64,000 nt of DNA from a virus: positions 44,266-108,265 of the IMG/VR virus record IMGVR_UViG_3300021142_000012; one strand, written 5' to 3'. The position numbers and the translations under genes were made by a program. The notes below the pieces were generated by a model, which was given only the letters and a program-made list of their open reading frames with translations, did not search any database and was not told where the DNA came from. Shown piece after piece: positions 57,110-57,565 of this stretch. Positions within the stretch are counted from its first letter, which is position 1. Each line of letters opens with the position of its first letter.

Positions 57110-57565
57110 GCTATCGCCGGCCTTGTGGGCGCCTTTTAACTGGATCTCGGATCGCAGGGTAAGGAATTTCTGACTGGTAGCAGAGTTATAAATCAGTATC
57201 CTTAACAGGACCTCGACGGAACGTGCCTTTAATCTGTTTGATTTATAAGAGAAAATTTTAAACAGGCTAAAAGAAGGGAGAAAAACCCTACGTTGTTATG
57301 CATGGTAGCGAATGCGTAGCAACCGCCGTCATATAAAGACTTGGCTCGAGGTACAGGATGACCGCCTCTGTAATGCCATACCGCTACTGTGACAATGTGC
57401 AACTCAGATAATGTTGTGTATATTGTTTTGTTTACTTTGCCCGGTCTGGGCAAAGTGTGACTGAACAATCTAGATAATATTTACAGTGCTTCGCACTTTA
57501 CTATAGTCTAAAGATTGAGATTAGTTCGAGCGAAGTGAAGAACAGAAGAACGCAAGTTCTTCTTA
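57110..57565 (+). ncRNA. Putative large structured non-coding RNA, family not recognised
   Basis: About 500 nt without a credible ORF; at least 9 helices including G-U-containing stems, a GCAA tetraloop and a 7-bp pseudoknot. Confidence 0.7.

Follow-up and report, generated by a model that had tools for sequence, protein, structure and literature searches.

A full-length Polynucleobacter-1 RNA with three pseudoknots and concerted twin boxes in uncultured T4-like phages

Large RNAs with a conserved tertiary structure of the kind described below are rare, and most of those explained so far are ribozymes or cores of RNA-protein machines. Polynucleobacter-1 (Rfam RF01718) is an orphan motif that dates from 2010 (Weinberg et al. 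2010, PMC2864571). It was reported downstream of genes with possible P-SSM2 homology (GOS11034 / PSSM2_218-like), its 3' half was sometimes undetected and no copy was found in sequenced phages (PMC2864571 supplement). Here we analysed a stretch of 64,000 nt (the window) from the 108-kb IMG/VR virus record IMGVR_UViG_3300021142_000012, in which positions 57095-57563 of the + strand almost certainly constitute a real structured RNA of approximately 470 nt that is the full-length form of RF01718. The first third of this RNA was thus already catalogued, without a function: positions 57109-57248 fit the whole 141-position model at twice its gathering score and the RNA lies downstream of a gene with a P-SSM2 homologue (38% identity to the upstream GIY-YIG protein), which may be the P-SSM2 gene of the published description. 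In contrast to the catalogued motif, the RNA described here continues for about 320 further conserved nucleotides, possesses twin boxes as well as three pseudoknots, and is located on viral contigs of the T4-like kind. This full-length architecture, namely the 3' two-thirds, the three pseudoknots, the twin boxes and the T4-like home, is new to the databases and literature searched.

The RNA resembles GOLLD, ROOL, OLE, raiA and HEARO, the last as it stood prior to its explanation, in its length of several hundred nucleotides, its ornate covarying fold and its phage association. Nevertheless, it matches none of their Rfam models in sequence or structure, and it carries direct-repeat boxes that change in concert, a feature that to our knowledge is not described for any of these RNAs. 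A second resemblance is to the omega RNAs of IscB and TnpB and to the IS110 bridge RNAs, which are likewise structured RNAs encoded beside a small nuclease and combine a conserved scaffold with short segments that evolve quickly; bridge RNAs moreover have two binding loops. Unlike in those systems, the neighbouring proteins belong to GIY-YIG family PF19835 and to PF24608, neither of which we know to be RNA-guided, the adjacency of gene and RNA is not obligate, and no target was found in the flanks or in the 108-kb record. We therefore regard the resemblance to omega and bridge RNAs as a lead and not as evidence of membership.

The RNA fills a gap (57087-57586) between the stop codon of an open reading frame (ORF) at 56652-57086 and the next + strand ORF, which starts at 57587. 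The sequence-only reading of the window had singled out this gap as unusual, and rightly so, since a crude tiling by ORFs leaves one other internal uncovered stretch of at least 120 nt (1822-1942), along with 542 nt at the window's end (63459-64000). The G+C content of the gap is 41.9% versus 37.9% for the window. Upstream lie T4-type neighbours, a gp47-like phosphoesterase gene (53589-54602) and a gp46-like SMC/AAA ATPase gene (54599-56380), followed by an 88-amino-acid ORF and then by the + strand ORF at 56652-57086. The latter borders the RNA directly but is not part of it, and encodes a SegE-like protein of 144 amino acids that consists of a GIY-YIG nuclease domain only (Pfam PF19835, 3.8e-34, whole profile covered; PHROG match phrog_447). 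After the RNA come a + strand ORF of 253 amino acids (57587-58348) and, downstream of it, a baseplate-hub gene on the - strand. The 253-amino-acid ORF could be placed in no Pfam or PHROG family, and tblastn against the first 57 related loci to be examined found no match for it; it looks like variable cargo, and in many related loci the RNA directly faces the hub genes. The completeness of the 108-kb record is 29% according to CheckV, which would imply a genome of roughly 370 kb, jumbo-sized for a T4-like phage.

Homologues were collected by two pattern scans of the viral collection, the listed matches of which were filtered with nhmmer. In at least 134 IMG/VR viral contigs the homology spans almost the whole gap (gap positions ~20-480) and not just one part of it. 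From the listed loci we derived non-redundant sets of 89 sequences at below 93% identity and of 80 at below 86%. A protein-coding gap was rejected, given that indel lengths among the listed homologues are divisible by three in just 15% of cases (335, against 1217 and 607 that are not), and a 79-amino-acid minus-strand frame was dismissed as a gene because it just mirrors the conserved RNA bases. Structure was scored on sub-alignments, as RNAalifold performed poorly on the raw 721-column alignment, in which variable hairpins are misaligned. Covariation supports 13 helices and three pseudoknots. Hence the initial proposal of a large folded non-coding RNA with a pseudoknot is borne out by strong covariation among homologues, with compensatory changes in related phages. 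The helices first listed by eye are all present in the sequence at the coordinates given for them, even though the description of the gap as almost fully paired proved too strong; the 11-bp helix (57186-96/57238-48) is conserved only in part, as the inner six and the outermost two pairs are kept and the others are not. The + strand orientation, also proposed at the outset from G-U pairs, was substantiated by fold z-scores against shuffles of -4.25 for the + strand and -1.69 for the - strand. The RNA strand is furthermore indicated by the U-G pair 57352/57364, invariant in 50 of 50 listed homologues, and by the frequent G-U pairs, many of them found among homologues in the 12-bp stem P8.

The 5' domain (57109-57248, + strand) comprises helices P1 to P6 and is the part recognized by RF01718, with a covariance-model match of 75.5 bits (gathering score 37; E = 4.8e-16; model positions 1-141 of 141). 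The same model scores 64-116 bits in all 14 diverse homologous loci searched. Among 46 homologues 88.9% of the cells in this domain are paired, compared to 29-46% when the partners are slid, and double changes occur at 28 of 36 pairs. The gap had been taken for unannotated, which is incorrect for the 5' domain and correct for the remaining ~320 nt, where nothing in Rfam matches. A confident Rfam hit had been named in advance as something that would remove novelty; a known family was indeed found, but for the first third alone. The failure to recognize tmRNA, RNase P or group I/II introns by eye was likewise matched by Rfam, which at gathering score detected no known large-RNA or ribozyme family, these included, in the window. 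Lowering the stringency to E values of up to 10 over 56900-57800 revealed no tmRNA, RNase P, intron, self-cleaving ribozyme, GOLLD, ROOL, HEARO or OLE, and within the gap at E = 10 RF01718 was the sole family. It was also the only family overlapping the RNA in the 14 homologous loci. A known family for the 3' two-thirds was thus rejected on the basis of the window and these loci.

Two covarying pseudoknots, PK0 and PK2, add to the one proposed earlier. PK0 forms between 57095-57100 and 57175-57180 in the 8-nt loop (57173-57180) of hairpin P3 (57168-57185). Its mean Watson-Crick run is 4.54 bp for cognate strands versus 2.82 for non-cognate strands and 2.66 ± 0.11 for shuffles, and more than 12 distinct complementary variants exist among the homologues. 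PK0 consequently places the 5' edge of the fold about 9-10 nt past the stop codon of the upstream gene. The central domain follows with hairpin P7 (57275-57289), in which double changes affect 4 of 4 pairs and the length varies, being longer in distant homologues, and with the 12-bp stem P8 (57292-57323, loop 57304-57311), in which they affect 11 of 12. The 7-bp pseudoknot suggested from the sequence alone corresponds to PK1, in which 57305-57311 of the P8 loop pair with 57381-57387; across 50 diverse homologues its pairing reaches 91.6% and each of the 7 pairs shows double changes, and a blind scan of column pairs recovered it as well. PK2 (P9) joins 57328-57332 to 57358-57362 within the loop of P11 and is 98.8% paired with double changes at 3 pairs among the 50 homologues. 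Helix P10 (57342-45/57375-78) encloses P11 (57348-52/57364-68), which has invariant bases in its loop along with the PK2 3' strand. For the domain as a whole, 86.9% of the cells in the 50 homologues are paired versus 35-52% with partners slid, the covariation score is 0.451 versus about 0.1, and 32 of 40 pairs show double changes.

The 3' region is composed of hairpins on the + strand. P12 (57435-57455) lies between the twin boxes and has 8 covarying pairs that are 96% canonical, while P14 (57485-57497) has 5 bp and a UUC loop and is missing from some homologues. In P15 (57524-57543) a conserved core is enclosed by an outer stem that covaries, and the outer stems of the listed homologues vary in sequence and yet stay complementary. 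This core, found in 72 of the 89 listed homologues, is formed by GAG, a CG stem of 2 bp with, in most cases, a GNRA loop on top, and AA. A further helix between the spacers preceding the boxes (~57395-57402/57461-57468) was discarded, its strands being complementary in one subgroup only. The terminal hairpin P16 (57544-57563), all 8 pairs of which covary and 95% of which are canonical, is probably the 3' end or a weak terminator. G-C pairs are scarce in it and no U tract follows it, and a consensus terminator scan of 56300-58700 called no + strand terminator, P16 included. Sigma-70 promoters and terminators were rejected, as they do not exceed the level of shuffles. Right after P16, at 57574-57581, the motif GATAAATA differs from the T4 late-promoter consensus TATAAATA at a single base. 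It precedes the ATG of the 253-amino-acid ORF by only 5 nt, and a similar TAAATA-containing motif occupies the same place in several homologous loci where a + strand gene follows the RNA.

The 3' region further contains two copies of one 7-mer, AGATAAT, at 57406-57412 (box 1) and 57472-57478 (box 2) on the + strand. These twin boxes are identical in 83 of the 89 listed non-redundant homologues, or in 85 after correction of two register slips, whereas the variant frequencies predict an agreement of about 25% for unrelated box pairs. Ten twin-box variants occur among the 89 sequences, and on a tree built without the box columns the 7-mer underwent at least 29 changes, all of them shared by both copies; in one clade the boxes differ at 2 of 7 positions. 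Positions 3, 4 and 6 are fixed or very nearly so, and positions 1, 5 and 7 change often. The mutual information of the variable positions peaks at the twin (0.84-1.08 bits of the ~1.0-1.2 possible), and no other column of the RNA co-varies with the boxes above the background of ~0.3-0.4. Identity between the two units extends in part upstream of the boxes (57401-57405, 57467-57471). The base five positions before each box co-varies between the units with a mutual information of 0.68 bits, and the three bases separating it from the box differ in a fixed way, CTC versus TCT.

We searched for a partner of the boxes at several levels. Within the RNA, no listed homologue has a Watson-Crick complement of its box, and a cis partner near ~57241 that would need G-U pairs was rejected, as it does not co-vary with the boxes. 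In 83 loci, the 6 kb flanking the RNA on each side contained no conserved complement. The whole 108-kb record contains 27 occurrences of the box versus 20 expected and 16 of its complement versus 16 expected, hence no enrichment. Position 37 of the anticodon loop is generally a purine, and the box complement would put C there; tRNA was rejected as the box target, the record having no tRNA and the tmRNA and tRNA of the homologous contig L188 having no complement. With no complement in the RNA or its flanks, it follows that neither the RNA nor its surroundings encode whatever keeps the boxes identical.

The gene context is largely shared among the listed loci. Of 121 loci with sufficient flanking sequence, 112 have the GIY-YIG gene immediately upstream of the RNA and on its strand; gp46 is upstream in 82 of 85, and a hub gene follows on the opposite strand in 74 of 75. 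Median identities are 76% for the GIY-YIG nuclease, 66% for gp46 and 37% for the hub protein; a selfish homing endonuclease would not be expected to surpass gp46 in conservation, as the GIY-YIG protein does. The RNA is retained at loci that depart from this arrangement. In three of them (L161, L143, L207) a PD-(D/E)XK endonuclease fills the nuclease slot (PF24608 = PDDEXK_15, 2.5e-29), annotated in PHROG as "RusA-like Holliday junction resolvase", and in three others (L145, L224, L154) an extra ORF of ~280 amino acids stands between the nuclease gene and the RNA. In L170 a different ORF precedes the RNA and the GIY-YIG homologue is elsewhere on the contig. Finally, the RNA of L188 lies 4 kb from a tmRNA gene in a stretch without gp46 or GIY-YIG, and no GIY-YIG match was found on this 32-kb contig. 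A plain reading is that the nuclease slot would hold the junction-resolving enzyme of the recombination module, supplied by either of two unrelated folds. Two of these loci have further features. An ORF of ~143 amino acids that appears RNase HI-like by eye is located between the PD-(D/E)XK gene and the RNA of L143 (~4960-5391, RNA on the + strand). L188 carries a permuted (alpha-type) tmRNA (3911-4304) and a tRNA with the anticodon CTA (5169-5243), of the amber-suppressor type, which hints at stop-codon recoding in this phage.

Outside uncultured phages the RNA was not encountered in the records searched. A blastn search of 50,697 phage records with the RNA gave no match, and 497 records of cultured phages include a homologue of the GIY-YIG nuclease. 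Three of these phages, Melnitz, S-SRM01 and P-SSM2, have no long gap behind the nuclease gene and no RF01718 anywhere in their genomes. A scan of bacterial contigs yielded no true match among the matches listed, RF01718 was found in 0 of 151 genomes searched and the pattern gave 0 true matches in 401 Burkholderiales genomes searched. Together with the exceptional loci, the cultured relatives thus indicate that the RNA is tied to the end of the recombination block in one uncultured T4-like lineage and not strictly to GIY-YIG.

We propose that the full-length Polynucleobacter-1 RNA is a trans-acting scaffold, the boxes of which read another nucleic acid, and we assign this account as a whole a probability of about 0.45. 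The RNA stands at the end of a block of gp47, gp46 and a small nuclease gene, with its covarying end hairpin toward the oppositely oriented hub genes. It may be co-transcribed as the tail of an early gp47-gp46-nuclease transcript and would then act in trans as a folded scaffold. Both boxes would base-pair with another nucleic acid, either with two copies of one sequence or with one sequence present at two sites of the partner, and this reading by both boxes would be the cause of their joint change. Against the box-reading account, identity of direct repeats can be kept also by other processes that require sameness, such as recombination or template switching; moreover, no partner of the boxes was found anywhere we searched, and there is the one clade with unequal boxes.

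A related explanation makes the RNA a guide, scaffold or regulator of the upstream small nuclease, GIY-YIG or PD-(D/E)XK, for which it would supply target recognition. The same-strand adjacency in 112 of 121 listed loci speaks for such a partnership, as do the 144-amino-acid protein, a bare nuclease domain conserved better than gp46, the different small nuclease PF24608 in the same slot at three loci and the guide-like appearance of the variable boxes. We nevertheless consider it unlikely, because the three phages examined out of the 497 cultured records with the nuclease (Melnitz, S-SRM01 and P-SSM2) are without the RNA, an extra ORF can intervene, the RNA of L188 has no adjoining nuclease, and a slot for a junction-resolving nuclease is the simpler reading of a gene from two families that are not known to be RNA-guided. 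The large size, three pseudoknots and invariant unpaired bases, e.g. in the P11 loop, are on the other hand typical of catalytic RNAs, so that the knotted core with its invariant loop bases could be the active site of a ribozyme that processes itself or acts on another substrate. With no Rfam ribozyme match at E up to 10 and no conserved candidate cleavage site identified, a catalytic role appears rather improbable.

To a similarly low degree we credit a cis-acting 3' UTR, which would stabilise or terminate the early transcript or insulate it from the converging late unit. The RNA does start directly behind a stop codon, end in a covarying hairpin and close a + strand block that faces - strand hub genes in 74 of 75 listed loci; yet its 470 nt, three pseudoknots, invariant loops and twin boxes far exceed the needs of a terminator or stabiliser, the terminal hairpin has no U tract and is not called by the terminator scan, and in the window as well as in several other loci a + strand gene follows. 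Part of the region may instead work as DNA, with the boxes serving as direct repeats for recombination, as a replication origin or in template switching. In favour of this, they are identical rather than complementary and co-vary, and the setting in a recombination module beside junction-type nucleases would also fit. Since the segment between the boxes is present in all 89 listed homologues, the surrounding sequence is constrained as RNA structure, and no recombinase gene was noted adjoining the RNA in the loci looked at, we hold a function as DNA to be very improbable.

The RNA is common in uncultured T4-like phages, with at least 134 viral contigs carrying it, yet the Rfam model stops after the first 141 positions, and such phage genomes would be better annotated with a model of the whole RNA. 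Furthermore, the twin boxes offer an experimental handle, as the molecule that reads them could be recovered by pull-down or cross-linking and the pairing tested by compensatory mutation. It is conceivable, although we think it most unlikely, that the RNA serves as the recognition component of a novel kind of RNA-directed transaction on DNA or RNA, in which the boxes would pair with two copies of a sequence and thereby unite or mark these for the adjacent junction-type nuclease, GIY-YIG or PD-(D/E)XK. Should the reader of the boxes indeed be a nucleic acid that is a substrate of the neighbouring nuclease, these phages would harbour a new RNA-directed system.
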